Counted from the first letter of the stretch, positions 1 through 40,000 are shown. The stretch is 40,000 nt of DNA from a bacterium (GCA_043772005.1 JAYVGP010000009.1:4328-44327); one strand, 5' to 3'. Notes: generated by a model not told the origin, from the letters alone. Numbers and translations: made by a program.

Positions 1-781
1 TATCCCAATGAGCATGTGAACGATGTCAGTGCAAAATACTAGAAATAGATTGTTTGATATCAAGAATATGGCGATGATGTTTGTCGTGTCATTGAATCAG
101 CACGGCATACCTTAATAATCACAAACTTGCATTACCATTGACGCGCCTGACAACATCGAGCACCTTGGTTCCACGTACATGTGACAAAATCTGACTAATC
201 ACGCGGTCAACCTCCTCACACTCAGATGGTAGTAGCTCTTGAAATTCATCAGATCTGACGATGCGATTATGTTTTGTGAGCTTATCAATGAGTCGATCTT
301 GATCTTTGTAAATAAGCTTCTTGCTGATATGATGCTGTACTGGAGTATCTTCATCAATTTGCGATAAATCACCAACTTTACCATCGAGCAATAAGCTCAC
401 ATAACGATCTTGTGTGTATGCTATCATACGGGCTGAGTCATCAATACGTGAGCCAAACATACGATATACAATTGCAATACTTGTCACCAGACGAGTCAGA
501 TCTCGATGAATCTGTCACCAGTTGGCTTCATCAAAATCATTGATATCAAAATCAATCTGACCAGCCAATCACCTCATGGTACCAAAATTTTCTACGTGTA
601 GATCGCCACACACTCGTCACCATGGAGATTCAAATGTAAGACGATCCTCGAGAGCTTGGTAAAATAATACAGCACTTCATCTAAAAAATGCTACTGGGTT
701 ACTCGCCATTTTGGCCCACTTGCGCTTGAGTAGTTCTGGGTCGCGTCATGCGTTGATCTTGTATAATTGTTCAATAATCAT
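1..781 (-). CDS. DUF2252 domain protein (C-terminus runs off the window start)
   Basis: ATG at 781-779. Track ORF 119..487 extends in the same frame in both directions through TGA (515-517, 569-571, 617-619, 119-121). Translated motifs KMASNPVAFFRGSA, CGDLHVENFG and DFDINDFDEA are typical of DUF2252. Confidence 0.7.
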
Positions 782-847
782 GAATTGAGAGCTAGCTAAT
801 ATGATACACTATTATAGTTATAAATGAGAGAATTAGCAATAATAAGT

Positions 848-893
848 AAAACTTGATTACTAATGGGTCTTGACTATGTAGTAGATAACTATT
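848..893 (+). promoter_or_regulatory. Conserved 45-bp promoter-like box, copy A (TTGATT-N16-TATGTA core)
   Basis: AAAACTTGATTACTAATGGGTCTTGACTATGTAGTAGATAACTAT is near-identical to the reverse complement of 14545-14590. It lies in the intergenic gap between two minus-strand genes and points away from both. Confidence 0.35.
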
Positions 894-1053
894 ATATCGT
901 ATTTTATTCTGATTGATGTAGTAAATCTACTATAAAAAAACATCGCCAATGATGACAATGTCTGAATATTGAACTATGAAAACACAATGCACTACGTACT
1001 AGATTTTACATATAATAGTAATCCTACATTTATGTGAAATCCACTATAATGAA

Positions 1054-1914
1054 TTACTTATCATTGATTAAGCTTGCCATCTTACCTTCAAGGTTTTCGT
1101 TGACGTAAATAACCTTGGCGTTACTATGACCAATCTTCTCCAGTGTCTCAATCCTACTGGAAGCAAGGAGAAAATCAAGAATTTGTGATCATTTGAGATT
1201 TGAGTCAGACGATTTGATTTCTTCAATCGAATTCTTGAATCAGTTGGCAATTGCCTCTCTCTGGAGAGCCATACCCTCACCGATAAGCTTCTTGACCTGT
1301 TTGTCTGCTTCAGCTGAGAGGATATCTGACTGCTTACGTCACTCGGCGTCGTTGATGGCGGCGAGCTTATTTTTAGCTGATGCTACGACACTATTCATCG
1401 CATCGAGGACACGGTTATCAAGTTTGATGTCTTTGACCTGCACTGAATCAAGCTCCATACCGAACTCCTGTAACTTGACCGCAAGGATATTCTTGACCTC
1501 GTCACCGATCTCGTTACGCTTGGAGAAGATCTCATCATGAGCAAACTCATATACCTTGGCTCTGAGTTGTTCTTCGACCATTGATCTGATGGCTTTGATC
1601 GGATCATTGATGATGAAGAGTGAATCAGTAATCGCCTTATCATTGTCCTGTACACGGAAGATCACATTGAGATCGACTCTGGTATTAACATTATCACGAG
1701 TGATGCTATCTACTCCTACATCCAAGTTAGTCATGGCGAGTGTCTGACGTCTTGTGGATTGGATAATCGGGATGATGAAGTTGAGTCATGATCTGAGTAC
1801 GCCTGTCGGCTTACCAAGGGTAAGCACCACGAGAGCAGTCCTGGGTGAGACAATCTTGATACCTGAGAGTAATACGATGATGAATACACCGAGAATGATG
1901 AGTTGTATTGACAT
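1054..1914 (-). CDS. SPFH/band-7 (stomatin/prohibitin-like) membrane protein
   Basis: ATG 1914-1912 with an N-terminal TM segment (MSIQLIILGVFIIVLLSG). Track ORF 1339..1734 is the SPFH core. It continues through TGA at 1339-1341, 1240-1242 and 1189-1191 to TAA at 1056-1054. 286 aa. Confidence 0.8.
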
Positions 1915-1943
1915 ATTATATTAAATTTACAAATTAAAAATTA

Positions 1944-3551
1944 TTATTCCACTAGGTGCAATATCACACCTGCAAACTTGATCGTATCAGTCACCGTAAC
2001 CTGCTCGCCTGATGGTAGCATCATCGATCCGCTATCGCCACGCTGTCATCCCATCTCTGGGTAAAATACTGTCTGGTCGAGTACGATTACTCTCTGACCG
2101 TCCGCATCAAAATCAGATAACACTGCAAACTCAGAACTCGTCAGATGATCATATCATACAAATTTCGTCTCCGAGATTCCTCATAGATATTTGGACCGAT
2201 CAATTGTGTTTTTGAAGTTAGCGTTGGCACGAGAGCGAGCTTGAGCATTGGATAGGGCTGACTCAAATCATGATTGATCTACTGATTTATTGTTGTGTCA
2301 TGCGATCTCGATAGTAAGTTCACTGGGGAAGCCATAGGTATCATACAAGCGAAATACCGTCTCACCATCAATTGTATCCTCGGTCTTAGCAATAATATCT
2401 GCCAACATAACTCTACCCTGGTCGAGCGTACGTTGGAACTTAACACACTCAGAGATGATTGATACTGGATCAATAGTAATATGAGGATAATCTGTTGCAT
2501 AGTGTGCTTGGATATATCATAGGATCTGCTTGGTAATTTCTAATTGATGATCCTGGGCAAGTTGTCCGATGTAATAATATGCTCTACGGATCAGACGGCG
2601 GAGAATATATCATCTTCACTCGTTGCTCGGTGTGACACCATCTGCTACCAGGAAGATTGATGCTCTGAGGTGATCCATGATCACACGGTACGCTTTGAGA
2701 TGAGATTCATACTGTGTATGAGTCAATGTCTCAATCTGACGGATGATCGACAAAAACAGATCTGTCTCGAAAATGGTCTCAGTGTTTTGTAATACCATCA
2801 TCAAACGTTCAAATCACATACCTGTATCGACGTTGGTCTGAGATAGTGGCGTAAATCCATTGCCAGATCAGTCTTGGTAATATGCCATGAAGACGTTGTT
2901 CCGGATCTCAGTATAACGATCATTGACTCCAATATCCCAGTCTGATGGCATCGCATCTCCCGTAATAGGATCAGTATAGTTCTGCCCATCTACTCATCTA
3001 TCATAGTAGAACTCACAACAGGGTCCACAAGGCCCGATTGCTCCTGGAGTCCGGAAGTTGTCAGACTCACCATCCTCATCAAATCATAGCTCACTGATAC
3101 GCTCAATCCCTAGAGTCTTGAGGATATCATAACTTTCGGTATCACGAGGAATCCCAGTAGCTTGATCTCCAGCAAAGATCGTCGCACCCAAACGATGCTT
3201 GGGGATTCACAATACATCTACAAGAAACTCAACTGTCCATGTGAGGGCCTCAGTCTTGAAATAATCACCAAGTGACCAGTTACCCATCATCTCAAACATC
3301 GAAAGATGTCTCTCGTCTCCGATATCTTCGATATCATTGGTACGGATACAGCGTTGGATATTATGCAGACGCTGACCAAGTGGGTGTGGCTTACCCACCA
3401 AGTATGGCACAAACTGCTGCATCCCAGCAACATTAAATAAGACTGATTTGTTTTCAGAGCTTGCGACAAGTGATACTGGTTTTGCTTCAGCATGTTGCTT
3501 ACTAACCCAAAACTGATCTCGCATTTGCCTTACCTGACTTGAATTATACAT
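1944..3551 (-). CDS. alaS: Alanine--tRNA ligase, short form (catalytic + tRNA-recognition + beta-barrel only, 535 aa)
   Basis: The N-terminus in track ORF 3207..3551 is canonical AlaRS ([19 protein letters not shown]). Downstream fragments join via TGA. The motif [19 protein letters not shown] has its second G as TGA at 2046-2048. TAA stop at 1946-1944, about 26 codons after this GGQ motif. Confidence 0.85.
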
Positions 3552-3653
3552 GAGAATTCTGAATTATATCATAAATAATGTGGGTAAATCATCCTTCCTC
3601 TAATTTCCATCCTAAGAATACTTCCTATGAGAAGCCGTTAATGAAAGGAGAGG

Positions 3654-4355
3654 CTATAATGTTGATTGTGCTGCATGTAAGGTTGGGTTATACATCTTGA
3701 ATAACAGTGATACAATCTCTCACGCATCAAGTTCAACTGATTGAAGTCAGACTCATCTCATACCCTCAATGATGAGGTTGTTTCTCATTTCAAGGAACTT
3801 GCGTTGCTTGACGTAGGTGCGATATCTGTCGATAATCACTTCGGCTCACTGGTCGCTATTGAGTACGTCCATAAACTTCTGTCGTCGTGGCTTATTAATA
3901 TGATCTGCATCCTTCTCAGTACTATAATATGGTACTACAATATAGAACTCCTTGATATAGACGAGTCATTCCTTGGTATTGATCGCATCCATGAAGCTGA
4001 TATACTCCTCACCGTAACTAGCAAGGGTTGGGTTGGCAATCTTCTCTACCTGCTCTTTCATAAGATTGATGTAATCTGACAGATCCAAGTAACTATTGTG
4101 AACAATAATCTGGATGGGGAAATCAAGCGCATTGAGGAATCTTTTGTATTGCTCGATGATCTGTAGTTGCTCTTCATAGCTTCTGAGATCCAAGTTGATA
4201 CCCTCTACTTTGATGATAGATCTGAGTCACCCGTCCTTGAGGATGATGGTCTCTCCTCTAATCTCTGTAAACTGAAATAAGCTCTCAGTACTCAGAGTAT
4301 GCTGGTTTTGCTCTTTACGAACTTTGTTGTTTTCGAGGAGGTTGAAGATGGACAT
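3654..4355 (-). CDS. Hypothetical protein (233 aa); weak resemblance to the N-terminal region of VirB4/TraC-type conjugation ATPases, with no ATPase domain
   Basis: ATG 4355-4353. Contains track ORF 3966..4193 and reads through TGA (e.g. 3966-3968) to TAG at 3656-3654. The segment IILKDGGLRSIIKVEGINLDLRSYEEQLQIIEQYKRFLNALDFPIQIIV recalls the VirB4 N-terminal pattern. This is from memory, not a search. Confidence 0.45.
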
Positions 4356-4432
4356 AGGAATTATGGAATAGGAGAAATAGAATGACGTACGCTGCTATCT
4401 ACAGAATACTCAAAAACATCTCAAAATCAAAT

Positions 4433-8111: not shown

Positions 8112-8446
8112 AGATATAAGCTGTCGCTATAAGGTTTATCTCCCTTCAACAAGTATACGCTGTTGTTCAAGTTCATAAGATTTTCTGTCTTCTTCTTCGT
8201 TGTACCGACTGCGTCAGCACTTGTACTCTTTAGGGCATATACTGCAGCAGCCTCGTTCTCTATATATTCATCATTAGGAGCGGAGCCAATAGAGAGCAGT
8301 AATCCAGTGAGTAGAGAGATTGAACATTAGAGCGAATCATAATAGACTAATATAAGAATATCACATAAAGCTGGATTACTTGACTAAAGGGTTACTTTCA
8401 TATCGTATACCTCATAATAACGAGTGGTTTGTGATAAATAAAAAAA

Positions 8447-8519
8447 TCAGAGTGGCGGGGCTCGAACCCACGACCTCAAGACCCCCAGCCTTGCGCGCTA
8501 CCAACTGCGCCACACCCTG
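8447..8519 (-). tRNA. tRNA-Pro (anticodon GGG)
   Basis: Hand-folded cloverleaf: acceptor CAGGGTG/CACTCTG with C1-G72 and A73, D arm GCGC-AGTTGGTA-GCGC, anticodon arm CAAGG-CTGGGGG-TCTTG, T arm GTGGG-TTCGAGC-CCCGC. CCA is not encoded. Confidence 0.9.
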
Positions 8520-8686
8520 ATTTATGTTTGCACTATAATAATATGTGTATCAAATTCAAACTGATCAATTAATTATCACAATCAAACACGTAGCAATACA
8601 TCCCTATGTCAATTAAATACGATCGAGTAAGAACCTTAAATAACCTTAATACTCAAATGAGTAGTAGCTCTGCATCCCATACGTCC

Positions 8687-9592: not shown

Positions 9593-11401
9593 CTAGTATT
9601 TCTGATTTTGTAAAAATTGATTGAACTTATCACACATCACATCAAATCACTCAGTGCTGGATGCGATCGTCTCTTCACCATGTACAAGTGTGATCGTAGC
9701 ATCGAGGTTTATAGTATTACTGATGGACTGATGTGCAAGAGCAGTAGTAATTCTCTCACGAGCGGTATCGAGGACCTCATCAATCGTCTTGTTGATACTA
9801 TGCAGATATGCCTCTGGAGACAATGGTTTACCTGTGGCTTGGAGTACGAGATCATCCATGGGCAATGAAGACCCAAACTTCCAAAAACGCTCCATTCGAG
9901 GTCAGACTTGTGGATTATCTAGAATGTATCCATCACGCTCAAAGAAGAACTCCCTATACTGATATACTGCCAAATCAGCCATGCCATACCCATGATAGCT
10001 ACATGCGCTCTCCCAGTTGAACGGATGAACTGCAAGCAATGGTCGTGGCAATGGCGTACTATGTGAAAAATAGTTGAGGCTGACTGTATTGGCAATATCA
10101 AGTACTTTGTCTGTGGTGAGGTCAGTGGATGTATAAATCTGTCTTTCAAACTGTACCATCGCAGCAATCGACATCATGCGACGACCTGCCAGTGGGTGAA
10201 GTTTACGAACTCTTGCCTCAAACTGCTCTCGTGGGAAATAGTCACCATCAAAATTCTGAGCATATAGTGTCTTGTACTCAATACTACTCATTACACTATC
10301 CATAAACATACTCTGTGTCTCTGCCCGAGCAGTAGAAGCTGGTGGGTATTCAGTATTGAGAATTACATCTTGCTGATCCATATGTGCAAAATGAGCTGCA
10401 TGTCCTCACTCATGAAATAGTGTATGTCACATATCAAATCCATCTCCTATCACATCAGGTCTCGAACAACAGGTAAACCCAATCTGGACGGACTGTCTGA
10501 ATCCATCGATATAGTGAGTAGGTACTGGCATATGACAGAAACCATTGTTGTATTTACCATCTCTTTCCATGAGATCAAGTTGCATCGTCGCACCATGATA
10601 GTTAACACCAAGTCTCGTCATGCATAGACCCCAATTCATGAGCTGATCCTGTAGGCGGAAATATGGATCTTCTTGCTTGGTAAAGTCTCATGAGAGGTAA
10701 TATCACATATTCCATGGCTCACGTAATCCTGGCTGATCCTTTTCCATTTCATACAGATACTGTCTTGAGCTTTCTGCTTGTTCATACAAATCATCAAAGA
10801 TTTTCCAGATTACCTCACAATCCATGCGCTCCTCAATCTGAGTCTTGTAATCATAGAAGTGCTTGTATCATAATGCTTGAGCATACTGGTTTCTGAGTGT
10901 AACAAGCTGGACATAGGGAGCGAGATCATCAAGAGGATACTGACAGATACCATGATAGTAGGCTTTTCTCAGGTTTTCGTCAGATTCTGTGACCATCTTA
11001 GCATACATTGATTTCTCTGACATAGAGACAAACTCTCCCGTAGTTGGATCAATATATCACTGGATACGGTTGGATCTGGATGTGTCGATACTCTTCTCCA
11101 ATGTGATGATTTGTGTTTTGAGATCTTGGAGTTCGTCTGGTGTAGAGTTGATACGGAAAAAATACTCCCAATGCTGTAATCTCTGGATCAACTCAGGATC
11201 TGACTCAATCACGAGTTGTACTTGCACCTGAGCGTAATATTCTGCTGATGATTTGAACCCATCGAGCGTCGTCTTAGTGGAAACGAATGGCTCATCGTAG
11301 GTTTTATCACCCATATAACTAAGCCAAAATGCTTCCTCATAAGGGATATGACTATCAAGGTAGGTTTGATTAAGATGGTTGAGGAGGTTGAGAGAAGACA
11401 T
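9593..11401 (-). CDS. pepF: M3-family oligoendopeptidase (PepF-like), 602 aa
   Basis: Track fragments 11057..11401, 10427..10639, 9902..10381 and 9647..9895 are all in one frame and joined by TGA. Zinc motif TLFHEGGHAAH, with the first G of GG as TGA at 10406-10408. TAG stop at 9595-9593. Confidence 0.8.
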
Positions 11402-11876: not shown

Positions 11877-13596
11877 CGGACTGAGACTGAGATGCTAAAA
11901 CTGGTGATGGCACTATACCATCAGAATATCTACTTGCGAGAGTAATAAGTTCTCCGATATTTTCCATACGCTCTTCTGCCTGAGGCTTGCCTTCATCATG
12001 GATCAGGAAGTCTTCATATTTGATATCTTTGACAATTTTGGCGAGGAGATCAGCAGGTGACAGCTGATCTACTACCTGAAAGCAATATGACATGAGTTGT
12101 GTAAACTGCTTGATAGGGGTGATAGTACGTGAGGTGAGTCAGATACTCGACCAATATTGATCAATATCGGTGATGATGTCGTGCAGTGATAGTCCATTTT
12201 TCTGACCATATTCCTCAAGTTTAGTGATTGTATCAGGTCCGATACTACGCTTGGGGACGTTGATAATACGCTTGAGGGCAACGGTATCACGAGGGTTATA
12301 GATATAACGCAGGTAGCTGATCATATCTTTGACCTCTCTACGCTCCAAGAAACGCAATCACCCAAAGATCTTATATGGCACTCACTCCGCAATCAATACT
12401 TGCTCAAAAGCATTGGACTGAGCATTTTTACGATAGAGAATTGCGAAGTCTGACCAGTTCATGGTTTGCTTACCTTTGATCTCGGAAAACAGATTCACGA
12501 CAGTCTTGGCTTCTGCCATCTCGTTATCGTTGGTGATATGGATGATCTTCTCTGTCCCATCGCGATGAGCAACAATATCTTTGGAGTATTGTTTGGTATT
12601 GTTTTTGATGATGTGTGAGCCTGCATGGACGATATGAGGTTTGGAGCGGTAGTTGGTTTGGAGCTTATAGATGACAATGTCTGGTCGCATTGATTTGACG
12701 TTGAGAAAGTTTTCCATCATAGCGCCACGCCAACGATAGATACTCTGAAAGTCATCACCAATAAATGTGATATTGCCTTTGTGTGTATCGCAGTCTGCAG
12801 CAAGCAGCTTCATAAGCTCAAACTGAATCCAGTTGGTATCTTGCGCCTCATCGACTAAAATCTGGGGGAAACGGCGCTGTCGCTTGAGTGTAATCTCAGG
12901 ATTGTCACGCAAGATGAGATAAGGAATTAAGAGGAGATCATCAAAGTCACACATATTTGCCTTATGTAACTCTTGTTCATAACGATCATAGACCATTGCT
13001 TCTCGCTCTTCCTGCTGTGAGTTAACGAGACGAAGTGCGCGCTGAGCAACAACTCACTTATTCTTGTAGCGAGAGATCGCTCATTGGGCATCTTGATATT
13101 TGAGACGCTCTTCATATTTGAGCTCTTTGATGATATTTTTGATCACTGACTGACACTCTCCTGTATCATAGACTCCGAAATCTTTGGTCAATCCATGTCC
13201 AAATGCCTCAATCTCAATCTTGAGAAAACGCAGAAATGTGGAGTGGAAGGTTCAGACCCATGGGAACGTAATTGGAGCTGAAGAGACTGAGAATGCTTCT
13301 CACGCATCCTCTTGACTCTTTTTAGCTTCTTTTTCTTTTTCAGCTTGTAAGTCCTTGGAGATTTTGATCAACCTTTCCTTCATCTCGTTGGCTGCCTTGT
13401 TGGTAAAGGTCACTGCAAGAATACCGGAAGGATCAAACCCACAGCCATGAACTAAATAGGCTATCTTATACGTCAGAACACGGGTTTTACCAGATCATGC
13501 TCATGCTAAAATCAACGAGCTTGTGTCATAATGCACAGCAGCGAGATATTGTTCTTCATTGAGCTGAGATTTGATGTATATTTGGATTGGAGTCAT
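11812..13596 (-). CDS. pcrA: UvrD/PcrA-family helicase, C-terminally short (594 aa; motifs V/VI region absent)
   Basis: ATG 13596-13594. Walker A LILAGAGSGKTRVL with TGA at 13501-13503 and 13495-13497. Also present: [28 protein letters not shown]. Track fragments 12382..12996, 12139..12357 and 11812..12093 are in the same frame. It ends with a low-complexity tail ([26 protein letters not shown]) and TAG at 11814-11812. Confidence 0.8.
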
Positions 13597-15140: not shown

Positions 15141-16280
15141 ATGAACTACAATCAACTCGCTCTCGAAGCCCACAAACTACACAAATGAAAACTCGGAACT
15201 CATAGCATTCCGAAACTCGAAACCAGAGATGATCTTTCAACTTATTATAGCCCTGGTGTAGCTGCCCCATGTCTCGCTATCGAACAAAACCCCGAACTCG
15301 CCTATGACTATACCTGGAAATCTCGTACGATCGCAGTAGTCAGTGACGGCAGTGCTGTCTTATGACTGGGGAATCTGGGCTGACTGGCATCATTGCCCGT
15401 GATGGAGGGTAAATGTATTTTATTTAAAGAATTTGGATGAGTAGATGCAGTGCCAATTGTACTCAATACTCAAGATCCAGACGAAATCATCGAGACGGTG
15501 TTACGCATTAGTCCAACATTCTGAGGAATCAACTTGGAAGATATCAAAGCTCCAGAGTGTTTCTATATTGAGGAGGAATTGAAAAAAAGAGCATGAATCC
15601 CAATCTTCCACGATGATCAACATGGTACTGCAATCGTCGTACTCGCGGGTCTCATCAACGCCCTCAAAGTAAACAACAAGATAATGTCAGACATCAAAAT
15701 TGTGATGACTGGAGCTGGAGCTGCCGGTATTGCGATTGCGAAATTACTATGGAAAGCATGAGCGACCAACATTATTATGGTTGATACCAAATGAGCAATC
15801 CATCACGGCAGAACTGATCTCAATAAATATAAATCTGAGATTGCTGACTACAATCGTGACACTCTCAGTGGTTCGCTGTCTGAAATAATCATTGGGGCAG
15901 ATGTATTTATTGGAGTATCTGGACCCGGTACGCTGGATCAAGACATGGTCAGAACTATGAGTACAGATGCAATCGTCTTTGGTCTTGCTAACCCAATCCC
16001 TGAGATTATGCCTGAGGATGCCAAAGCAGCCTGAGCGCTCATTATTGCTACTGGTAGGTCAGATTACCCAAATCAAATCAATAATATATTGGCTTTCCCA
16101 TGACTATTTAAGGGAGTATTACAGGCTCGTATCCCACAGATCACTGACGACCATAAACTCGCAGCTGCATTTGCTCTTGCAAATTATGTCACAAACCCTA
16201 CCGTAGATATGATCGTACCCAACGCACTGGACAAAGCTGTAGCTGATATAGTAGCACAGGCAGTAATAGGCGTCAAATAA
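15141..16280 (+). CDS. NAD(P)-dependent malic enzyme, short form (379 aa)
   Basis: ATG 15141. Motifs: [85 protein letters not shown]. Many of the conserved glycines are TGA (e.g. 15363-15365, 15381-15383). TAA stop at 16278-16280. Confidence 0.9.
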
Positions 16281-17530: not shown

Positions 17531-17645
17531 ATACAAGGTATTATAAAAAGATCAAATTAATTATAAATTGCGAAAATATCAGCAATCTTTACTATCAGTA
17601 ACAGCTCAATCTTGTATTTAATGAGCTTTTATGTATTATGAGATT

Positions 17646-18647
17646 ATGAACATAACTATTTGACCAGACGAAGCCGACCAGAGATTTGATCGCTACCTAC
17701 GTAAATTATTTAAAAAATATCGTGAAATCTGACTCGGTGACATTTTTTCATGGATCAGAACTGGTCTTATCACGGTCAATGGTCGTAAAGCAAAGCAAGA
17801 CTATAGAATCAAACGCGGAGATGTGATTGAAGTATGAAATATTAAGGAGATTGAAAGTGCAACACATCAAGTATTTAGCACAAAGCTTGGTAGACAAACT
17901 ACGAAGCCCAAGATGAATGTTGCCAACCTCAAGAAACTCATTATCTATGAAGACGGTAACTGGATCTTCTGGAACAAGCCAGCAGGGGTCGTGATCCATC
18001 CAAGTACCAACCACTATAAGGATGCTTGTATGAATGATTACTTGGAGCAGTATCTATGATTTGAAGATGATGGAAATAGCGAGACATTTAAACCATCATT
18101 TTGCTATCGTTTGGACAAAGATACGTCCGGAGTTCTTATTGCAGCTAAGACATACGATGCGCTTAAGCACCTTAACGAAATGATCAGAACTCGTGATGAG
18201 GGTATCGAAAAATATTATCTTGCAGTGGTAGTGGGTAAACCAGCAGACCAAACCATCGACGCACCACTATTCAAATGATTTAGCGAGAAAATGTGAAAGG
18301 GTCAGACCTTTGTTAATTATGAAAAATGAGTAAAAGCGATTTCAATTATTGAAACACTCCAAACTGTGGATCATCGTGATTTAGGTGAAATATCTCTCAT
18401 CAAAGTTAGAATCCTAACTGGACGCATGCATCAAATTCGTGTGCACTGTACGCATATTGGTCATCCAGTGCTGTGAGATATTGCCTATGGTAGCAAACAA
18501 CATAACGAATTATTGGCCAAAAAGTATAGTATCACGAGACAACTTCTTCATTCGTATCAGTATGGATTCCGTAGTATGGATGATAGCTGGATTGAACGTA
18601 ATTGTCCCGCTCCACAAGAATTTGCATTTTTATGACTACATGTGTAA
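17646..18647 (+). CDS. rluD: RluA-family 23S rRNA pseudouridine synthase with N-terminal S4 domain (RluD-like), 333 aa
   Basis: S4-like N-terminus (RFDRYLRKLF...ITVNGRKAKQDYRIKRGDVIEV). Catalytic region FCYRLDKDTSGVLIAAKT and GRMHQIRVHCTHIGHPVLGDIAYG, with the G of LGD as TGA. An alternative in-frame ATG exists at 17631. TAA stop at 18645-18647. Confidence 0.85.
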
Positions 18648-19269: not shown

Positions 19270-19276
19270 TTTTATG

Positions 19277-19348
19277 CAGGCCCTGCAAGACTCGAACTCG
19301 CGACGCGAGGCTTTGGAGACCTCCGCTCTACCTCTGAGCTAAGGGCCT
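19277..19348 (-). tRNA. tRNA-Trp (anticodon CCA)
   Basis: Hand fold: acceptor AGGCCCT/AGGGCCT with A1-U72 and G73, D arm GCTC-AGAGGTA-GAGC, anticodon arm GAGGT-CTCCAAA-GCCTC, T arm GCGAG-TTCGAGT-CTTGC. Confidence 0.9.
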
Positions 19349-24959: not shown

Positions 24960-27419
24960 ATGAAATATCATCTCAACTGAATCAAACAATACATCTCACT
25001 CAAGGATAATCTCGAAAATCTGGTCAAACAGATGACGATGAAGATCTTTGAGGTTGAGGATGAAATTGTGGATAATATACTACCCGATCTACTTGTGATC
25101 TGATATGTCACAGCCGTAACTCAACATCCAAATGCGGATAAACTCAAAGTATGTCAGATCGACTGTGGTACTCATGGAAACTTCCAGATTTGTACTGGTG
25201 GAGAGAATATTGTCGTCGATAAATATGTGCCTGTAGCATTACCTGGATGCTATCTGCCAGCGATTGATCTTAAGATCGAGCCAAGACCGATGAGAGGCGA
25301 GGAATCCAACGGTATGGTCTGCTCCAAAGGTGAACTCGGTATCAATGAAGACGAGGACCAGCACTGGATATGGCTACTGGATGAGGATCTCCACGATCTA
25401 TCGGCTGACGATAAAGGAAAAGACATGAAGGATAAGTATCCATGGCTAGAAAATGTGCAATTTGAGGTTAAAAACATCGCAATTACCACCAGGCCTGACC
25501 TGACTGGGTATTGGGGAGTGGCTTGTGAGCTCAATGCGGTGTATGCTGACAGTGGATTGATACAGTTTAACCAAGTACCAACAGTGCTCAATGAACTACA
25601 GCATCTTAATATCAGCGAAGCACTACGTACTGCACCAAATGCTACCAGATGAGTACAAATCGATACTGACCTATGTGCGTGCTATAGTGTGGTGGAGTTT
25701 GATGGGATTACAGTCAAGCCTAGTGACCTCTATCAGAGGATGATGGTCTATGGTACTGGAGCAATCCCCAGAAGTAATTGGGTCGACCGGTCCAATAATT
25801 TTATGAATTTGACAGGGCAGCCAGTACACTGCTTTGATAGTAATACACTCGTAGGAGATATCATCGTGAGAATTGCCAATGATGGAGAACAATTTACTGA
25901 TCTGCTGTGAGGAGAACATGCGCTCCAAACATGAGATATTGTCATATGCGATCAGGAAAAGATCGTAGCCCTTGCAGGTGTGATCGGATGAATGAATACT
26001 GCAATCAGCGAAACAACCACCAAGGTAAGTGTGGAAGTAGCGCAATTTGACCCAACACAGGTACGTAAGACCGCAACAAGATTGTGATTGAGAACTGACG
26101 CAGCGGTCAGATTTGAAAAATATATCAACCCATACTGGACACAATACTGCACGATGATCGTGTCAGAACAGATTCGCAAGCAGGCGACGAGCCTGGGTAA
26201 AGCCAACTATGTTGGGATCACACATGTGACCAATATAATGCCAGCTCGCATGCCAGTCACCGTGTCGGTGGCCAAGGCTCAACAGTTTATCTGGGGTAAT
26301 GGGCAAGCGCATACAGGTGAACAGATGAAGAAATTGCTCGAACATCTATGATTCATCGTGAGCCTCGATAGTGATATGATGCTATGTACACCACCAATCT
26401 GGAGGTCACCGGTCGATATCACACATGTGCAAGATATCTATGAAGAGATTGGTAGGATTGTAGGATATGAAAATCTGGGCACTCAAACACTCAAGACAAG
26501 TGCTACACCGCAGCTCAACATCATCCCACAGGTTGTAAGGACAATCGAAGATACGATGGTGATGAAATATGGCTATGATCAGGTCGAAACATACCTCTGG
26601 ACCGAACAAAAATACCTCGAACTCCTCGGTCAATATGACCCAAGCTCCTATACACTACTCAATCCACTTAGTCCTGAGCAGACAATCATCAGACCGATGT
26701 TGTACCCAGGACTCGTACAATCTGTGGTCAAAAATCATAGAATGCATGATGAGGTCAAAGTATTTGAGACGGCGCATGTGGTAAATAGTAACGGAGTTGA
26801 AACTCATCATGTCTGTATCGTAAGCTATACCACAAGGGATAGCAACAGCGAATATCCGTGAGGATGAAAAAATCTCCTGCAAGATGCCATCATACAGCAC
26901 AAAACGATCCTGTCAGACATCGTCGGACAGTATGAGATATCCTCTACAGATAAGGCATATCTCCATCCTAAGAAACAAGGAGAGATTAAAATAAATAGTG
27001 AGATAGTCGGACTCCTAGGTCAAGTACATCCACTGGTGTGTGATGAGCTCGGTCTCAATATTGACTATCAACTCGTGGTCACTGAGGTAAATCTTACAGC
27101 ACTGATCGCACAAGGCTGGACATGAGTCAAGTCAGGCAAATCATATCTCACCAACCAACACCATATCATCACTCGTGATGTATCGTTTGGACTGACAGGT
27201 AATGCAACATACGAGCAGATCCTCAACATTGCTCAGTCTGCCAAGGGTATCGACAAGGTAGAGGTGTTTGATCTCTATCAGCCAAGTCCTGAACTGCGCA
27301 CGATGTGAGTAAGATTTACGATGATCTATGATGAGGCTCCAAGCACCGAATCTGTGACTAAGAAGGTAGAGTATATTGTCGGGCAGATTGCAAAGATTGA
27401 GGGAGTGAGTGTGAGGTAG
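24960..27419 (+). CDS. pheT: Phenylalanine--tRNA ligase beta subunit (819 aa)
   Basis: ATG 24960. N-terminal tRNA-binding (OB) domain: VIGYVTAVTQHPNADKLKVCQIDCG...IEPRPMRGEESNGMVCS. Track fragments 25227..25652, 25689..25910, 26088..26351 and 26358..26861 are collinear in one frame and joined by TGA. TAG stop at 27417-27419. No pheS is found upstream. Confidence 0.9.
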
Positions 27420-28582: not shown

Positions 28583-29578
28583 ATGAATATTAGAAAAAAA
28601 CCACAGCAACAGCTCGAAGATGATACAAAAACAATAAGTAGATTTGGTAGTTTGTTTTTTTTATCAAAATACACTATAGAGGATATAACTCTAGCACTGT
28701 GTAATCCCAAGGAGAATGAAGATTTTCATCGTAACTTTTTGTTGTGGTTTAGAACATATTTCAAGTCATATTCTATCTTTAAACACAATCAAAAAACCCA
28801 TACAAAAGAAGATACTACAATATCGAATCCAACCACAACCATATTTGTCTCAAGAAAGAAAACAGAATTTTTTGGAGAATATATCAACAGAGCCCATATT
28901 TGGTCTGATCATTTTAAAGTTAATAATGAACCCGTAGAATACTGAGTAGTAGACTCAATACTAATATGAACTAGAGACTGAGACGGACTAACTCCTGAAG
29001 ATCCGCAACCCATCTATTGCCAATGAGAACAAACCAAAATCTATACTATTAATACCAAATGATACATCTGAGAAATAAAATCAAAACCCCGATTATTAAA
29101 CTCCATTAATCAATATATCAACCATAACATACTTGAATATATGTATGAGTGGTTTAACTCAATTAGATGCCATAACTTTGGATTTGGTATAGGTCTATGA
29201 AATTACTCTCACATCATACCATATGATAATCAGAAACTCAGAATAGGAGACACTATAGCATTTATTGCTCCTAGTGACTGAGATTATCACTTTCTTGTTT
29301 ATTTGTGAGATAATATAGCTATCTGAAAACTTGCTCAACTAGGGATTCATTTTTCTAGTCTTTGACAATCTTTTACCAAAAATAAAATGCCAAACTCTTG
29401 GATTATCAAACCAGATACTAGATATAATAAGCTAATGAAAAAAAATGACATGGAATGACTAAACAGTCTTTTTATCACTAATTTTAATTTGTGGATTGAG
29501 TTTCTCAATCAGCTTAAAAATCATACTAAAACTACTCCACAAAATAATTCTGATACACAACTCCCTGCACAGGACTAG
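28583..29578 (+). CDS. Hypothetical protein (331 aa); possible papain/NlpC-P60-like C-terminal half (very tentative)
   Basis: Track ORF 28583..28945 continues through TGA to TAG at 29576-29578. RIGDTIAFIAPSDGDYHFLVYLGDNIAIGKL, preceded by a Cys (SIRCHNFGF), loosely recalls the NlpC/P60 Cys...His order. Its 3' end overlaps the miaA 3' end by about 47 bp (convergent). Confidence 0.5.
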
Positions 29579-30524
29579 TCTGACTATCTCTCAGATACCT
29601 ACGAAACCATGTGCGTTGCTTCTTGGCGAGGCGGCGATCGCCGAGCTGCATGAGTCTGATACACTCTTCACGGTCATACTCTCAGGCCAGATATCACATG
29701 ACGATCGGGTAGAGGATCGGCTTCTTGGTTGTCAGATGCTCTGCGTATCACAGTGAGATGAGGTGCTGGATCTCATCGATAAATCCATGGTCCAGCATCT
29801 GTTCGATCCTACGGTTGATAAGCTCATCACCACTCACTACATCTCTCCGCAGTCCTATCATGAGGAGTGGACGAATAGGTGGATTGGAAGATGTAATCTC
29901 AGCTTTGGTCTTGCCAGTGATGTGGATCATCTCGAGGGCTCTGATGATAAATCTGGTAGAGCTCGGATGATGACGCGCAGCTTCTGCTGGGTCGAGCTGG
30001 GTGAGTAGGGTGTGGCAGTATCACGGTGATAGCAATTCCTCAGACTCGAGGGTGGCTCTATACTCATAGTCAGGCGGGACATCAGGGAGTCAGAAGTTAT
30101 GGTATATCATATCAATATATAATCCGGTACCTCAGACTATGACTGGGATCTTGCCACGTGTCTGAATCTGTCTGACATACTCATGAGCATCAGTCTGCCG
30201 CTGTCCTGCAGTATAAATCTCATCTGGATCCACTATATCAATCAGGTGATGAGGCAACTGAGCACGGATCTCAGGACTGACCTTGTCAGTACCAATATCC
30301 ATATAACGATATATCTGACGTGAATCAGCGCTGATCACCTCAATCGGGAAACGGTCACTCAGCTGCAATGATAGTGCTGTCTTGCCAGTAGCGGTCTGTC
30401 ATCGGATCGCAATCATCCCGTCGGGATAATGATCGAGAAAATGCTTCACATCTGCTGTGATCTTCTCAATATCATAAGAGCGATACGAAGTGAGTCCCTG
30501 TGGGAGTATCTGATTGGCTTGCAT
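29532..30524 (-). CDS. miaA: tRNA dimethylallyltransferase (330 aa)
   Basis: ATG 30524-30522. P-loop IAIRGQTATGKTALS with the first G as TGA at 30399-30401. Also ISADSRQIYRYMDIGTDK, HHLIDIVDP and PVIVGGTGLY. Track ORFs 30132..30368 and 29748..29930 are in the same frame. TAG stop at 29534-29532. Confidence 0.85.
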
Positions 30525-31649: not shown

Positions 31650-31726
31650 GGTCATGTAGCTCAGTTGGTTAGAGCGCGTCTCTGATAAGGACGAGGTCGA
31701 AGGTTCAAGTCCTTCTATGACCACCA
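31650..31726 (+). tRNA. tRNA-Ile (anticodon GAU), CCA encoded
   Basis: GGTCATG-TA-GCTC-AGTTGGTTA-GAGC-G-CGTCT-CTGATAA-GGACG-AGGTC-GAAGG-TTCAAGT-CCTTC-TATGACC-A-CCA. Confidence 0.9.
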
Positions 31727-34115: not shown

Positions 34116-35771
34116 ATGTCTAAACGCATCGCAGAACTGCTGTATTCTCATGTATCCAGCGACCTCACACTCCTCAAACAACAGTACCCAGATCGTGAAT
34201 GAGACCAGATGGTAGTCAGATTCTCACCGTCTCCAACTGGAATGTTGCATCTGGGAGCCGTATACATGTGTATGATCAATACACTTGTCGATCCACAAAC
34301 ACCGAGAACATTTATTTTGAGAATTGAAGATACTGACCAAAAAAGATTAGTCGAGGGAGCTATAGATCTTATTATTGACGGATTAAAATATTTTGAGATT
34401 GAATTTAACGAATGACCACTTATCAAAACCGATAATTGATATGAAAGCGTAGGTAATTATGGACCATATATCCAGACACAAAGAAGAAAATCATACGATA
34501 TTGTTGCCAAATATCTTATAGAGCACGATCATGCATATCCATGTTTTCTCACCGAAGATGAAGTCGAACAAATCCGCAAGAGCCAGGAGTTACAAAATAA
34601 ACTTCCAGGTATCTATGGTGCATACAGCACCTATCGTCATACTAGTGATGATGATATCATTTGACTTATTGAAGGAAAAACACCATATGTAATTAGACTC
34701 AAAAATAAATACTGACTATGAGACAAAGTTAGTTTCCATGACTTGGTCAAATGAGACAGTACGATGTGAGCCCCACATCAAGATACCGTATTAGTTAAAT
34801 CTGACTGAATTCCTGTATATCATCTTGCTGCTATGGTTGATGACTGGCTCATGTGAGTAACACATATTATCAGAGCAGATGAATGGTTTTCCAGTATTCC
34901 ATTACACCTCTATATCTCATCATTGTTCAATCCACATCCACCTAAGATGGCTCACCCATGACCACTTCTTAAACTCGATGCGGGCAATAGGCGTAAGCTC
35001 AGTAAACGTAAGGATCCTGAGGCCGATGTACACGCCCTACTTGCTGATGGTTATGATGTAGAAGCCATTATCAACTATTTAGCTAATATCGCAAACTCTG
35101 GATACGAGGACTGGTGGTTGGAAGATAATTCAAGATACTACCGTGACTATCCGTTTACAATGGACAAAATTAATAGTGCTGGAGCGATCGTAGATATGAT
35201 CAAGGTGGGCGCAGTGAGTCAAGATACTTTTGGTCGTATGAGCGATAAACAAATCTATGATAAGGCAGTTAAACGATGTCAATCATATAATACTGAGGCT
35301 CTGGATATAATGAAAAGCAACAAAGATATTTGTTTACAGGCAATTAGTATCGAGCGTCATGAAGGCAACGACCCCAAAAGATTTATTACCTATCAAGATG
35401 TAGTAAATCACTGTAGATTGTTTATTGATAGTGAGTTTGATATGATGGAATATCCAGCAGAATGGACTAGCCTGACCTCCGATCAAGTCAGCGAGTTTAT
35501 CAATACCTATGTCCCACTAATTGAGCTCTCACAAACCAAGGAAGCATGGTTTGATCAACTCAAACAAATCTGATGAAAACTTGGCTATGCTGCGAGTAAC
35601 GGGGAATTCAAAGCATGATGATATGTCGGTAAAGTGGGAGATCTCGCGATGATCTTGCGTATCGCATTATGTAAATCTAATAGAACTCCTGACCTATATG
35701 AGACGATGCAAGTGATGGGTATCGAAAGAATAAAAGCAAGATTACAGCAACTAGTTAAGCGGAAGACATAA
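34116..35771 (+). CDS. gltX: Glutamate--tRNA ligase (551 aa)
   Basis: ATG 34116. VVRFSPSPTGMLHLGAV (HIGH region), ILRIEDTDQKR, VYHLAAMVDDWLMGVTHIIRADEW, KLSKRK (KMSKS). Track ORFs 34209..34415 and 35118..35573 are in the same frame. TAA stop at 35769-35771. Confidence 0.9.
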
Positions 35772-35780
35772 AATAACCTG

Positions 35781-35806
35781 GGAACTACTAGATAGTTCTC
35801 TTTTTT
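35781..35806 (+). terminator. Hairpin plus T-run after gltX
   Basis: GGAACTA-ctaga-TAGTTCT followed by CTTTTTT. Confidence 0.5.
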
Positions 35807-35828
35807 ATCAGTATATAAAAATAATCTC

Positions 35829-36992
35829 GTGAACCAATCAACTCTTCAAAAAATAATTATCTACTGATGACTACTCTTGGATGTTATAGGAATCGCAGTA
35901 CTAATACCAGCATTTCCAGAGCTCAAAATATACTATGGGATCAACGATTTTCAGGTGACACTGTGACTAACGATCTACTCACTATGTGCATTTGTGGCTG
36001 CACCGCTCATGGGGCAATTGAGTGATCGCTATGGTCGTAAACTAACACTAACACGATGTGTAGCTGGTACAGTCTTATCTTATGTAATATTACTCATCAC
36101 TCCAGCATACCGAATCTTCTTACTCTCAAGAGTCATCAACGGTATCACTGGATGAAATATATCTATCTTACAGGCGATTCTTACGGACATCTCGAGTAAT
36201 AAGGAAGAGAAAACCAAAAACTTCTGACTTATGTGAGCAATGTTTGGACTCGGCTTTATCATTGGTCCAGTAATCGGATCGTTGCTTCTTAGAGCTGGTA
36301 ATGTATATGGGATATTTTGGTGATGAGCGATCTTTGCAGTACTCGAATTAGTATGAATACTACTATGGTTTCGTAATACCAATACGCCTGAGTCAGGTAA
36401 ACATATCTCACTCAATAGTTTTGGTGTCATCTATAAACACATAAGTAAAGAAAAAATGAGGCCATACTTGATTTCATTTGGGCTATTGGGAGTGGGATGA
36501 TTTATAATCAACTCTACCCAATCATTATACATGAATACTAAATTTGGTACAAGTGGTGAACAATATGGTTATTATCTTGCGATACTATGAGTTATTGCTG
36601 CGGTCAATATGGCCCTATTGATACCTAAATTCTGGACCAAGCATATGAGCAATAAATCGCTTATCACCATGTCACATCTTGCTCTTATTACGGGTTATGG
36701 GGTGATGTGATTTATGACACAAGAGTGGGTGTTTTTAGGTTTTTTTTATGGTGCCATACTATTATGAAACATATATAACCCCCTATATAATGCTGAAATT
36801 ATGTCACAGGCACGTCCTGATGAAGTGGGCGAGGTATCTGGTATGTTATGATGATTACAAAGTTTATTTATGTTTATTGGTCCACTGATAGGTGGGATCC
36901 TTTTGAGTCAGGGTATCAATGTGTTTGCTGTCGCCAGTGTATGTTGTATCATTAGTCTAATCGTCTTGCAATCATATCAAAAAACCAAATAA
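35829..36992 (+). CDS. MFS transporter (387 aa)
   Basis: GTG 35829 (there is no in-frame ATG near the 5' end). LLLDVIGIAVLIPAFPEL and GQLSDRYGRKLTL (MFS motif A-like), with about 12 hydrophobic segments. More than 20 TGA codons were read as Gly. I checked the frame codon by codon to TAA at 36990-36992. Confidence 0.75.
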
Positions 36993-37002
36993 GCATTACC
37001 AC

Positions 37003-37563
37003 ATGATAGCAAAACAACATAAACTCACTACCAAAGAGGTAAATTATCTCATGAGACGCAAACAATCGGTCTACGTAGATGGATATAAGATTTTATACTG
37101 CGATCAATACCTCAACAATCAATACCATCAAACAGGTATCCAGGTATCGGGCAAAGTCCACAAACATGCCGTCCAAAGAAATATTATTAGAAGAGCATTT
37201 TATGCTGCACGAGAAGATCAGATTGACAAAGCAACACACAATCATTATCACAAGATATTCATCGTAATTCATCCTGAGCATTGTGAGTTTATCGAGCAAC
37301 TAATCGAAAGCGAAAGATTATTAAAAATAGTAAATAACAGTGAATCCCCAGGAAAGGAGAAAGATAATAAAAAGACGCCTCATTTAAAATCCAATCCCCA
37401 TCAACAACTCAAATCACATTTTAATAGTATCATCATATCAGCGCTATGAAAAATCAACAAAACACTATCCAAGCCATGATCTCCAACGTACAATCGTTAT
37501 GGAAAAAGTTCAATATCAAGCCCAAGTCGCTCACACTCGATGACGACGAAGACATCACCGTAG
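37003..37563 (+). CDS. rnpA: Ribonuclease P protein component (186 aa when TGA at 37447 is read through)
   Basis: Track ORF 37003..37449 carries the RnpA pattern (KLTTKEVNYLMRRK...GIQVSGKVHKHAVQRNIIRRAFY). Its apparent stop is TGA, so under table 25 the frame continues 38 codons to TAG at 37561-37563. Confidence 0.7.
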
Positions 37564-38684
37564 GTGAGAATTCTGACATTGTTGATCAAAATCACATATG
37601 GTCGATGTCATTTATCTTTTGGTTTGCGTGAGTAGTGGTTGTCTATGTGTGATATCTATTGTTCTCATCATTGGACTTGATCTATCTTATATTTGCGGGA
37701 TATGTGTTTTCGATGGCAGTAGAGAAGATGATTGTCTGGTTTGGAACCAAATTTAGAAGCAGAGGATGGGGCATATTTGTAGCGTATTTTATCTTTATTG
37801 CCGTACTGCTCAGTGGTATGCTTATTATGGTACCATTTTTAGCAGGACAGATCGGTGATATAGGTAGCATTGTACTCAAAGCAATCAATAACACTCAGAC
37901 TCAACTCCAGACAATATGACTTGAGCAAATGGTAGGATCGGCAGAACGAATCCCATCTATTATCAAAGATAATCTCGTTACATATCTCAATGATCAGGAT
38001 ACCGTCTCTAGTATACAAAAGTTTCTCCAACAAAATATTAGTCAAATTGCTAGCACAAGTAGTACATATCTTCAGGGTGCGGGAGGAATTGCGGTCAATA
38101 TTATTAGTGCAATATTCAATGCTCTTACTCAAGTCGGTTTTGTGCTCACCTTGTCGGTATTGTTTAGTATCGAGAAAGATGCTACAATGAAATTGATACG
38201 CAGATTTGATGCAAAACACAATAGCAATCGACACCATAAGATCTCTATGATGTATGAGAAACTCGGTTTCTGGCTTACAAGTCAACTAATCTTGTGTCTC
38301 TTCATCTTTGCGATGAGTGGAATAGGATTACTAATTTTGGCACTGTTTGGGATACAACTACCCAGCATCTTCTCTCTTGCAATCATTGCATGATTAACAG
38401 AACTTATCCCATATATATGACCGTTATTGGGAAGCATACCGGCACTACTAGTAGGCACACTCAATCATGGTTTAGCGTGATTTGTGGGTGTGGGCGTGTT
38501 GTTCTTTGTGATTCAATGGCTAGAAAACAACGTTCTCATCCCACGGATCATGAACAAAACGCTATGAGTCAGCTCATTACTTATCTTCTTGTGTATGGTT
38601 GTGGGAGCAAGTACGCTAGGATTTATCGGTATTGTGCTTGCAGTACCGATTGCGATCATTATTTCGATTGCCACAGAGGAGTAG
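37446..38684 (+). CDS. AI-2E family (PerM/UPF0118) transporter (412 aa from ATG 37446; 359 aa from ATG 37605)
   Basis: Signature GLTELIPYIGPLLGSIPALLVG...VIQWLENNVLIPRIMNKTLGVS...GFIGIVLAVPIA. Track ORFs 37446..37631, 37659..37919 and 37929..38393 are in one frame and joined by TGA. TAG stop at 38682-38684. The start is ambiguous because the first ATG overlaps rnpA. Confidence 0.8.
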
Positions 38685-38750
38685 AAACGATTTGCAAAAT
38701 TTGTATCATTACGGTATAATTAAGCCAATAAGTATTTAAAAACAATATTC

Positions 38751-39518
38751 ATGGATACATCTCGCATCTTGCTCTCGACAGACACTCTCTCAGGATATGG
38801 ACTTGATCACATTTTTGAGGTAGCAGAAAGCGCATGATTCTGAGGAATTGACCTCGCAATGTGGAAAAATTTCGATACATGGAATAGTGGTTATGTGAAG
38901 AAACTTAAAGCAAAACACAATATTGCAGTACCAATCATCCAAGTTTCATCTGATATTAATAGCAAGGAGATGACACAGGCGCTTGAGCTTGCAGCAATTT
39001 TGGAGACTAAAATAATTGTGATCAATCCCCCAGGTACGTTTAATATTGCGTCATATCACTTTATCACCAGTAAGCTGCCACAGATCCAGGCTGACAACCC
39101 TACGATCCAATTTGCGATCATCAATCCACCTGAGGATATGGTGTTCATCCTACCAATCCCTAAGTTCAAATTTAGTAATATAGAGCAAATCACCAGTAAG
39201 TATAACTGTAAAATCTGACTGGATATCACGCATGTTGACGGCGATTTTGTGGATAGTGAACTCATGAAAAAGCTTCCTGTTCACCTCAAAAATACTACCA
39301 CTATCTACGTCTCAGATAAAACGAAAAAATGAGTCAGACATCTGCCATTATGAGAATGAGATATGAAGATCGATCTGTTGTTCAAGAAGATGGCAAAGCT
39401 GAGCTACGATGGATATTTCAGTGTCAAATATACTCTCAACAAGAAACAGCTCGCCGATATGGATGAGGTTGAAGTTGTGTTGAAAAAAGCTATAAGTGTG
39501 ATCAGTAGTTCACTATAG
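38751..39518 (+). CDS. Xylose-isomerase-like TIM-barrel (sugar phosphate isomerase/epimerase family) protein (255 aa)
   Basis: ATG 38751. LSGYGLDHIFEVAESAGFGGIDLAM...ELAAILETKIIVINPPG...GLDITHV...GVRHLPLGEGDM...DGYFSVK follows the AP_endonuc_2/TIM-barrel pattern. Track ORF 38859..39218 is in the same frame. TAG stop at 39516-39518. Confidence 0.6.
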
Positions 39519-39522
39519 TCTT

Positions 39523-39747
39523 ATGGCCTTTGAAAAGAAGTTTAATAAAGTTTTGCTTGGATTGCTCATTGGAACCACGATCGCGGGTGTTGCTGGAGCC
39601 AAGACTCCTACTGGTCAGAAGATTGTCAAGAAGACTGCTTCTGGGTTTTTGTGATGAGCCAAAAAGATGATCAACTTTCTCCAGTGAGGATTAGAGGAGA
39701 TGAAGAAGAAGATTGATGAGAATGAGGATAACAATAATCCAAAATAA
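39523..39747 (+). CDS. Small membrane protein, YtxH-like (74 aa)
   Basis: ATG 39523. VLLGLLIGTTIAGVAGAKTPTGQKI resembles the YtxH N-terminal helix, followed by a charged tail. TAA stop at 39745-39747. Confidence 0.4.
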
Positions 39748-39773
39748 TAACAACAAACAGATTAAAAAAATAT

Positions 39774-39799
39774 CACAACATATTGTTGTGCAATTTTTT
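39774..39799 (+). terminator. Intrinsic terminator after the small membrane-protein gene
   Basis: CACAACA-tat-TGTTGTG followed by CAATTTTTT. Confidence 0.55.
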
Positions 39800-40000
39800 G
39801 ATGTATTCAAAAAAACCCATAATTATTTTATTTTGTCTTGAATTGACATTATAAAACAATATCATATTTTCAATCTCTTGTATGTCCTGAGTAATTATAG
39901 TATATAACTATCAGTAACAAGCCTGTATTTCTTCCTTTGTACTGGTGATAAATAATTCATTATTTTATCTCCAATATTTTTTGCCTTTATGAAATTGATT

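Follow-up and report, generated by a model that had tools for sequence, protein, structure and literature searches.

Evidence that UGA is read as glycine and CGA and CGG as tryptophan in a 40-kb chromosomal segment of an uncultured bacterium nearest SR1/Absconditabacterales

The code listed as NCBI translation table 25, the SR1/Gracilibacteria code, goes back to Campbell et al. 2013 and Rinke et al. 2013 (as cited in PMC8629427). In this code UGA is an extra glycine codon, UAA and UAG are the only stops, and the other 61 codons keep their standard meanings, so that CGA and CGG encode arginine. Using the program Codetta, Shulgina & Eddy (2021; PMC8629427) found UGA to be read as glycine in Absconditabacteria and Gracilibacteria and predicted that, in Absconditabacteria, CGA and CGG are read as tryptophan. 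They ascribed the decoding of CGA and CGG to tRNA(UCG) and tRNA(CCG), since candidate phyla radiation (CPR) bacteria lack tRNA-Arg(ACG). A 2026 paper (PMC13092985) treats the CGA/CGG tryptophan code as established for Absconditabacterales. According to the gTranslate preprint, the users of table 25 correspond to the GTDB class JAEDAM01 (Absconditabacterales and BD1-5), and genomes labelled just "Bacteria" at NCBI tend to receive table 11. The stretch analyzed here is 40,000 nt of bacterial DNA with a GC content of 39% (GCA_043772005.1, JAYVGP010000009.1:4328-44327), referred to below as the window. With a probability that we put at roughly 93%, the window comes from the chromosome of an uncultured CPR bacterium nearest SR1/Absconditabacterales, in which UGA would encode glycine, CGA and CGG would encode tryptophan, and arginine would be left with CGU, CGC, AGA and AGG.

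The window resembles table 25 in that UGA appears as an additional glycine codon, in that no codons but UAA and UAG act as stops and in that its nearest named homologues are from SR1, Absconditabacterales and Gracilibacteria. It differs in that CGA and CGG, which encode arginine in table 25, both behave as tryptophan codons, so the other 61 codons are not all standard. A first-pass annotation, made by a model from the sequence alone, had assigned table 25 to the window; its glycine UGA and its two stops agree with our results, but its arginine CGA and CGG do not. All three reassignments and the four-codon arginine set are shared with the Absconditabacteria code predicted with Codetta (PMC8629427), and the GC content of the window is likewise low to moderate. 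Unlike the Absconditabacteria examined in that study, the clade to which the window belongs shares just ~40-50% identity in GltX and PcrA with named SR1/Absconditabacterales proteins. The window shares with table 4 a UGA that is a sense codon and the collapse of standard gene calling, and contigs of this kind are commonly given table 4 by pipelines; UGA is tryptophan in table 4, however, and appears to be glycine here.

When the window was translated with table 11, only two open reading frames (ORFs) of at least 200 amino acids (aa) were found, covering 10.2% of the sequence. Reading TGA as sense gave 31 such ORFs and a coverage of 82.5%. In control runs TAA or TAG was treated as sense in place of TGA; the coverages were only 12.4% and 11.7%, respectively, so the effect is specific to TGA. 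The 28 gene models obtained in this way occupy 87.3% of the window (the first-pass annotation had estimated about 90 percent coding and had rightly called the standard-code ORF track misleading). Within their ~11,700 codons there are 280 in-frame TGA codons and no in-frame TAA or TAG. Each of the 27 complete models ends in TAA (14) or TAG (13), as had been claimed for all models. Pfam profiles are matched end to end across the TGAs in AlaRS, PcrA (UvrD-helicase), MiaA and the AI-2E transporter (ranges in Table 1), as well as in an MFS protein (6-347 of 347), RluD and both malic enzyme domains; the four PheT domains occur in order, and GltX has its catalytic and anticodon-binding domains. The first-pass annotation had proposed comparing coding density and profile coverage under alternative codes, and both speak for TGA as sense. 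Beyond the last TGA, homology also continues up to a TAA or TAG where the protein would be expected to end, reaching position 140 of 141 in the GltX profile and 242 of 243 in that of MiaA. UGA is a sense codon in the window, and UAA and UAG are its sole stop codons.

Which amino acid UGA specifies was examined in several ways. Thirty-five TGA positions of PcrA, AlaRS, malic enzyme and MiaA were aligned with the two best PDB homologues of each protein, a comparison free of annotation circularity. The TGA falls on a glycine in at least one of the two homologues at 23 of the 35 positions and on a tryptophan at none, in agreement with the first-pass annotation, which had called UGA glycine and not tryptophan and had proposed tabulating the residue aligned to each TGA. 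The glycine-aligned positions include the Walker A pair of PcrA, the GGTGLY motif and the P-loop of MiaA, DTGMGLER and GRGYVLRR of AlaRS, and AFPG of malic enzyme. That annotation had placed TGAs on "invariant glycines" in six motifs and had given coordinates for seven of the codons; all seven are present, in frame and on the strand given. With x standing for TGA, we recovered those of PcrA (LAxAxSGKT), MiaA (IRxQTATGKT, on a glycine in two solved structures) and AlaRS (PEMGxQRGD, on a glycine), and the TGA of the RluD motif PVLGD, for which no position had been given, was located and also aligned to a glycine (Table 1). In homologues, the two PcrA Walker A columns contain only glycine, or tryptophan where the database used code 4. 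"Invariant" is overstated for two of the six motifs. The M3 peptidase codon lies within HExGH as described, but it is the variable third residue of HExxH (phenylalanine in HEFGH of neurolysin) and is uninformative on glycine. Both malic enzyme codons are TGA (VLxLGNLGx) and the first is on a conserved glycine, but the second corresponds to proline in both of the best solved homologues. Compared with these two structures (PDB 5cee and 2a9f), seven of the ten malic enzyme TGAs are on a glycine in both and one on a glycine in one.

A second comparison used the best 120 database homologues of GltX, split by tryptophan content. One sort contains 3-6% tryptophan and 1-4% glycine; its members evidently come from recoded genomes to which code 4 had been applied. 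The second contains ~1.1-1.3% tryptophan and includes Dojkabacteria. In the 27 low-tryptophan sequences used, the 15 columns corresponding to GltX TGAs contain 119 glycines and no tryptophan, and columns 100, 213, 231 and 247 are 63-100% glycine. Orthologues from nine related contigs (L001-L006 and L008-L010; 62-100% protein identity) were then aligned with the window codon by codon, with validated frames only. Among 606 aligned window TGAs, 404 are unchanged and 202 are changed, with GGN at 126 of the changed positions and TGG at one; in the reverse direction, 113 of 215 TGAs in the relatives are opposite GGN in the window. A single transition would turn TGA into TGG, and the near absence of this change argues strongly against tryptophan. 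Codon composition was calculated for the 27 models other than an S-layer-like gene described below: TGA accounts for 2.64% of codons, GGN for 4.32% and TGG for 0.88%. Taken as glycine, UGA brings the glycine content to an ordinary 6.96% and makes up ~38% of glycine codons; taken as tryptophan, it would give 3.5% tryptophan and 4.3% glycine. Structure columns, GltX columns, codon exchange and composition are four independent lines that all agree, and they support the assignment of UGA as a glycine codon, neither tryptophan nor stop.

The 28 models contain 66 CGA and CGG codons. Usage per 10,000 codons is 39 for CGA, 17 for CGG and 83 for TGG, so that CGA and CGG would make up ~41% of tryptophan codons; under the extended code (the three reassignments together), tryptophan would be 1.39% and arginine 3.37% of residues. 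The CGA and CGG values are at the high end of those in PMC8629427, where no species reaches 37 for CGA and just one reaches 7 for CGG, although the latter were counted in Pfam-aligned columns and are not strictly comparable with ours. In the codon alignments with the nine related contigs, the 24 changed CGA codons of the window correspond to TGG (15), CGG (2), an arginine codon (1, CGC) and others (6), while the 25 changed CGG codons correspond to TGG (15), CGA (8) and others (2), with no arginine codon among them. Changed TGG codons (26) include 11 that are CGA and four that are CGG in the relatives. The window's CGT, CGC, AGA and AGG codons (876 aligned) are opposite one of the other three members of this set 141 times and opposite CGA, CGG or TGG at no position. 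CGA and CGG thus exchange with UGG and between themselves; exchange with the remaining four arginine codons is almost absent.

Solved structures give a similar picture. Nine CGA or CGG codons could be aligned with structures of PcrA, AlaRS and MiaA: the aligned residue is aromatic for six, aliphatic for two and glutamate for one, and in no case arginine or lysine. A tenth, from a weak M3 peptidase alignment, is on phenylalanine. Two AlaRS CGG codons (167 and 217) occupy the conserved tryptophans of DNFW and EIWN, and AlaRS CGA codon 11 is on a conserved phenylalanine. Conserved arginine motifs inspected in AlaRS, PcrA, MiaA, RluD and GltX are all encoded by CGT, CGC, AGA or AGG. The conserved tryptophan of the PcrA motif YRWRGA appears as a mixture of W and R across 120 PcrA homologues of recoded lineages, because databases render CGA and CGG as arginine. 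Based on these comparisons, the behavior of CGA and CGG as tryptophan codons, with arginine left to CGU, CGC, AGA and AGG, is strongly favored over plain table 25.

The tRNA-Trp(CCA) of the window has the normal 5-bp anticodon stem expected in lineages in which UGA is glycine (PMC13092985). The first-pass annotation had counted this single tRNA-Trp against UGA as tryptophan; the gene is present, but the argument is weak because a tRNA with a CCA anticodon is required for UGG under any code and a second reader of UGA would still be possible. A Pfam search of the window, which at 40 kb is part of the genome only, identified no prfA or prfB. The glycine identity elements for a tRNA(UCA) are G1:C72, C2:G71, G3:C70 and U73. 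From published work on the lineage, release factor 2 would have been lost before UGA came to be read as glycine, a tRNA-Gly whose anticodon is UCA would read UGA, and CGA and CGG would be read by tRNA(UCG) and tRNA(CCG) carrying tryptophan identity elements (G73, no A20).

The best named homologues of the window's proteins are from SR1, Absconditabacterales, Absconditicoccaceae and Gracilibacteria, with identities of 40-45% for GltX and 46-50% for PcrA. Far closer is a tight group of metagenome contigs and metagenome-assembled genomes that are 62-98% identical to the window. Two NCBI records of such relatives are JAYSSF010000049.1, the one relative returned by a scan of a genome collection, and contig JAYTKA010000042.1 of GCA_043730705.1 (L008), most genes of which are 100% identical to those of the window. 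A metagenome scan with PcrA for further relatives returned one match at 31% identity. In a single-gene neighbor-joining tree, which is suggestive only, the window group lies on its own long branch and adjoins a second recoded group, one member of which is a 497-kb contig.

One long gene stands apart in its codon usage. The gene for an S-layer-like surface protein is the sole long gene to read alike with tables 11, 4 and 25 and with the extended code, as it contains none of the three reassigned codons (Table 1). Given 38% TGA among glycine codons elsewhere, the probability of finding no TGA among its 81 glycine codons by chance is ~2e-17. Its syntenic orthologues in three relatives (L008, 15820-19170; L009, 15615-19181; L010, 15751-19314) also lack TGA, CGA and CGG, so that TGA is found at 0 of 335 glycine codons in the four genomes. 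Homologues carry the SLH domain (PF00395), and all of the 18 collected contain at most 0.8% tryptophan in code-4-style translations. The gene shows extreme optimal-codon bias, with GGT at 86%, GCT at 81%, AGA at 95% and GAA at 89%, and with C-ending codons for asparagine, isoleucine, phenylalanine and tyrosine. The simplest reading is that the gene is likely to be very highly expressed and that the reassigned codons are non-preferred. Avoidance of TGA or of CGA and CGG showed no trend with codon adaptation in the other 27 genes (Spearman +0.34, p=0.08, and -0.04, respectively), so the expression argument is drawn from the S-layer-like gene by itself. We found no description of such a TGA/CGA/CGG-free S-layer-like gene in the literature searched.

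Horizontal transfer of the S-layer-like gene from a standard-code donor was considered and rejected, given that the gene is syntenic in three relatives and has a classical optimal-codon bias. Transfer is further disfavored by the 18 homologues, which share similar N-terminal signal-like sequences and are all low in tryptophan. Between the window and L008, amino acid identity is 72% for the S-layer-like protein, 100% for AlaRS, the M3 peptidase, malic enzyme, RluD, a DUF4012 protein and others, and 93-96% for PcrA, an Lnb_N protein and a K+ channel. This comparison suggests that the S-layer-like gene is hypervariable and that the genes at 93-96% mark recombination tracts. The exclusion of all three codons from this gene in four genomes would suggest that the reassigned codons are decoded slowly or ambiguously. 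It is tentatively proposed, as a possibility that we consider rather less probable than not, that the window represents a recoded, deeply branching CPR clade (some dozen metagenome relatives at 62-98% identity, with a gap to named relatives) in which the three-change code is advanced and the reassigned codons are still costly.

Several observations weigh against our assignment of the code and the lineage. About one third of the structure-aligned TGA positions, and some of the CGA positions, are on variable columns and are uninformative. MiaA CGG codon 226 is aligned to glutamate, MiaA CGA codon 41 to valine, and PcrA codon 219 (CGA/CGG) to isoleucine or valine. The exchange counts lack phylogenetic independence, with one relative (L008) nearly identical to the window. 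Neither the window nor 10 related loci contain a tRNA(UCA), tRNA(UCG) or tRNA(CCG), the only tRNAs there being Ile(GAU), Trp(CCA) and Pro(GGG). Finally, the lineage assignment is based on the low identities to named SR1/Absconditabacterales proteins given above. Non-aromatic and variable columns, together with the lack of a reassigned tRNA at these loci, would suit plain table 25, in which CGA and CGG are still arginine codons and their pairing with TGG reflects real arginine/tryptophan replacements or alignment noise. We consider this very unlikely: CGA and CGG exchange with CGC once and with CGT, AGA and AGG never, the other four arginine codons are never opposite CGA, CGG or TGG, and CGG occupies two conserved tryptophans of AlaRS while CGA and CGG are missing from the conserved arginine motifs inspected. 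There is similarly little to recommend a UGA of dual or context-dependent meaning, one that is mostly glycine yet ends some genes or is ambiguously glycine and tryptophan through U34 wobble or a near-cognate tRNA-Trp. PMC8629427 does note a potential UGA/UGG decoding ambiguity, and UGA is entirely missing from the sole gene whose codon usage has a high-expression signature, a pattern that would fit a costly or error-prone codon. However, avoidance in one gene is explained equally well by ordinary codon optimization, and no gene model needs a TGA stop, with homology continuing to TAA or TAG at the expected protein ends.

The two remaining explanations deny glycine to UGA altogether. Table 4, the code of Mycoplasmatales and some insect endosymbionts, is right to make UGA a sense codon, and many public translations of the relatives do show tryptophan at these positions, their pipelines having applied code 4. 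The column and exchange data refute it: there is no tryptophan at the 35 structure positions or in the low-tryptophan GltX homologues (against 119 glycines), TGG accounts for one of 202 TGA changes even though it is a single transition away, and the protein composition would be skewed to 3.5% tryptophan with 4.3% glycine. The chance that the standard code applies is smaller still and practically nil. Under table 11 the window does resemble a scatter of short ORFs, and one could take the TGAs for genuine stops in a decayed, pseudogenized or error-ridden assembly, or for selenocysteine codons. Decay or error would not break frames by TGA alone (280 against no TAA or TAG), would not concentrate the interruptions on conserved glycines, and would not leave relatives at 62-98% identity with TGA, or GGN in its place, at the same positions; selenocysteine is also far too rare to account for a codon that makes up 2.6% of the total. 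The reading of UGA as glycine and of CGA and CGG as tryptophan is thus the one that we prefer.

Table 1. Features of the window, with the codons and alignments that bear on the genetic code (coordinates are those of the window; x in motifs, TGA)
Feature	Position	Strand	Details
Whole window	1..40000	.	Cellular DNA, densely coding when TGA is sense; 28 gene models, 3 tRNAs
AlaRS, 535 aa	1944..3551	-	13 TGA, 3 CGG, 1 CGA; Pfam tRNA-synt_2c 3-531/552; PDB alignments
AlaRS TGA in FYPEMGxQRGD	2046..2048	-	G of FYPEGGGQ/FYPESGGQ/FFPGGGGQ in archaeal AlaRS and an AlaX-like protein
AlaRS CGG codon 217, EIWN Trp	2901..2903	-	W in both bacterial AlaRS structures
AlaRS CGG codon 167, DNFW Trp	3051..3053	-	W in both bacterial AlaRS structures
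Hypothetical protein, 233 aa	3654-4355	-	No Pfam match with X-masked query; L008 and L009 orthologues recorded with PF26593 (TraC-like)
S-layer-like surface protein, 1121 aa	4493..7858	-	0 TGA vs 81 GGN; 0 CGA, 0 CGG
tRNA-Pro(GGG)	8446..8520	-	ARAGORN and Rfam
M3-family peptidase	9593..11401	-	Pfam Peptidase_M3; TGA 10406-10408 is third residue of HExGH
PcrA/UvrD-type helicase, 615 aa	11812..13659	-	11 TGA, 3 CGA; Pfam UvrD-helicase 1-268/271; PDB Rep/PcrA E ~1e-84
PcrA CGA codon 325	12685..12687	-	F and Y in PDB homologues; homologue column only W or R
PcrA CGA codon 260	12880..12882	-	W in Rep, Y in PcrA; homologue column only W or R
PcrA Walker A, A-x-A-x-SGKT	13495..13503	-	TGAs 13501-13503 and 13495-13497 are the two leading Gly; both G in E. 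coli Rep and B. stearothermophilus PcrA
Malic enzyme	15141..16280	+	10 TGA; 15363-15365 on conserved Gly, 15381-15383 on variable position
RluD-type pseudouridine synthase	17631..18647	+	TGA 18474-18476 in HPVLxD is G of E. coli RluD HPLVGD
tRNA-Trp(CCA)	19276..19348	-	ARAGORN and Rfam; A1:U72, G73, 5-bp anticodon stem
Hypothetical protein, 1074 aa	20877-24101	-	51 TGA, 57% of its Gly codons; 11 CGA/CGG
PheT, Phe-tRNA synthetase beta chain	24960..27419	+	12 TGA; four Pfam domains in expected order; orthologues 74-84% identical in L003 and L004
MiaA, tRNA isopentenyltransferase	29532..30524	-	P-loop Gly is TGA 30399-30401; Pfam IPPT 1-242/243; G in two solved structures
tRNA-Ile(GAU)	31650..31726	+	ARAGORN and Rfam
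Glutamyl-tRNA synthetase (GltX)	34116..35771	+	15 TGA; basis of homologue-column test
RnpA, 186 aa	37003-37563	+	Pfam match to residues 4-94 only
AI-2E transporter	37446-38684	+	Pfam AI-2E 5-324/327

Some of the proteins in Table 1 are unusual in length or composition. PcrA is a short form, with a UvrD_C match limited to positions 1-188 of the 350-position profile; PcrA proteins of relatives at 49-54% identity, one of them on the 497-kb contig, are likewise short (541-575 aa), and named SR1/Gracilibacteria PcrA proteins are 730-780 aa in length. The AlaRS gene reaches its TAA directly after the beta-barrel (FYPEMGGQ...HLVE) and so lacks the editing and C-Ala domains; orthologues in the relatives are 526 aa in length, and no free-standing AlaX was seen within the 40-kb window. 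The 1074 aa hypothetical protein, for which a Pfam search gave no match, has a repetitive stretch rich in threonine, glycine and isoleucine (TxTVVTxMIITGAASTGIVVTxIVMTxIILTxT) and two segments that read as lamin-tail-like (ITEV..DG..EYIEL.N), and its orthologues are just 41-46% identical. RnpA carries a C-terminal extension of ~90 aa that contains two TGAs and reaches 118 nt into the AI-2E transporter gene as its start is annotated; the extension is aligned in relatives, over 176-191 aa.

The choice of code decides every gene call in the window. Table 11 fragments the genes, table 4 puts tryptophan at ~2.4% of residues, and a table 25 translation gives arginine for tryptophan at 0.56% of codons, including those of AlaRS DNFW and EIWN. 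Many of the database homologues collected here (P0001-P0268) are mistranslated copies, with code 4 tryptophan for glycine in GltX and arginine for the YRWRGA tryptophan in PcrA, the latter even in records named SR1 or Absconditabacterales. These results do not overturn current knowledge, as the reassignment of UGA to glycine has been known since 2013 and that of CGA and CGG to tryptophan was predicted in 2021. The prediction for CGA and CGG has so far rested on one computational screen, for which codon exchange among close relatives now provides independent evidence. That evidence comes from a divergent clade that makes relatively frequent use of both codons, and it indicates that the CGA and CGG reassignment to tryptophan would extend to this clade.

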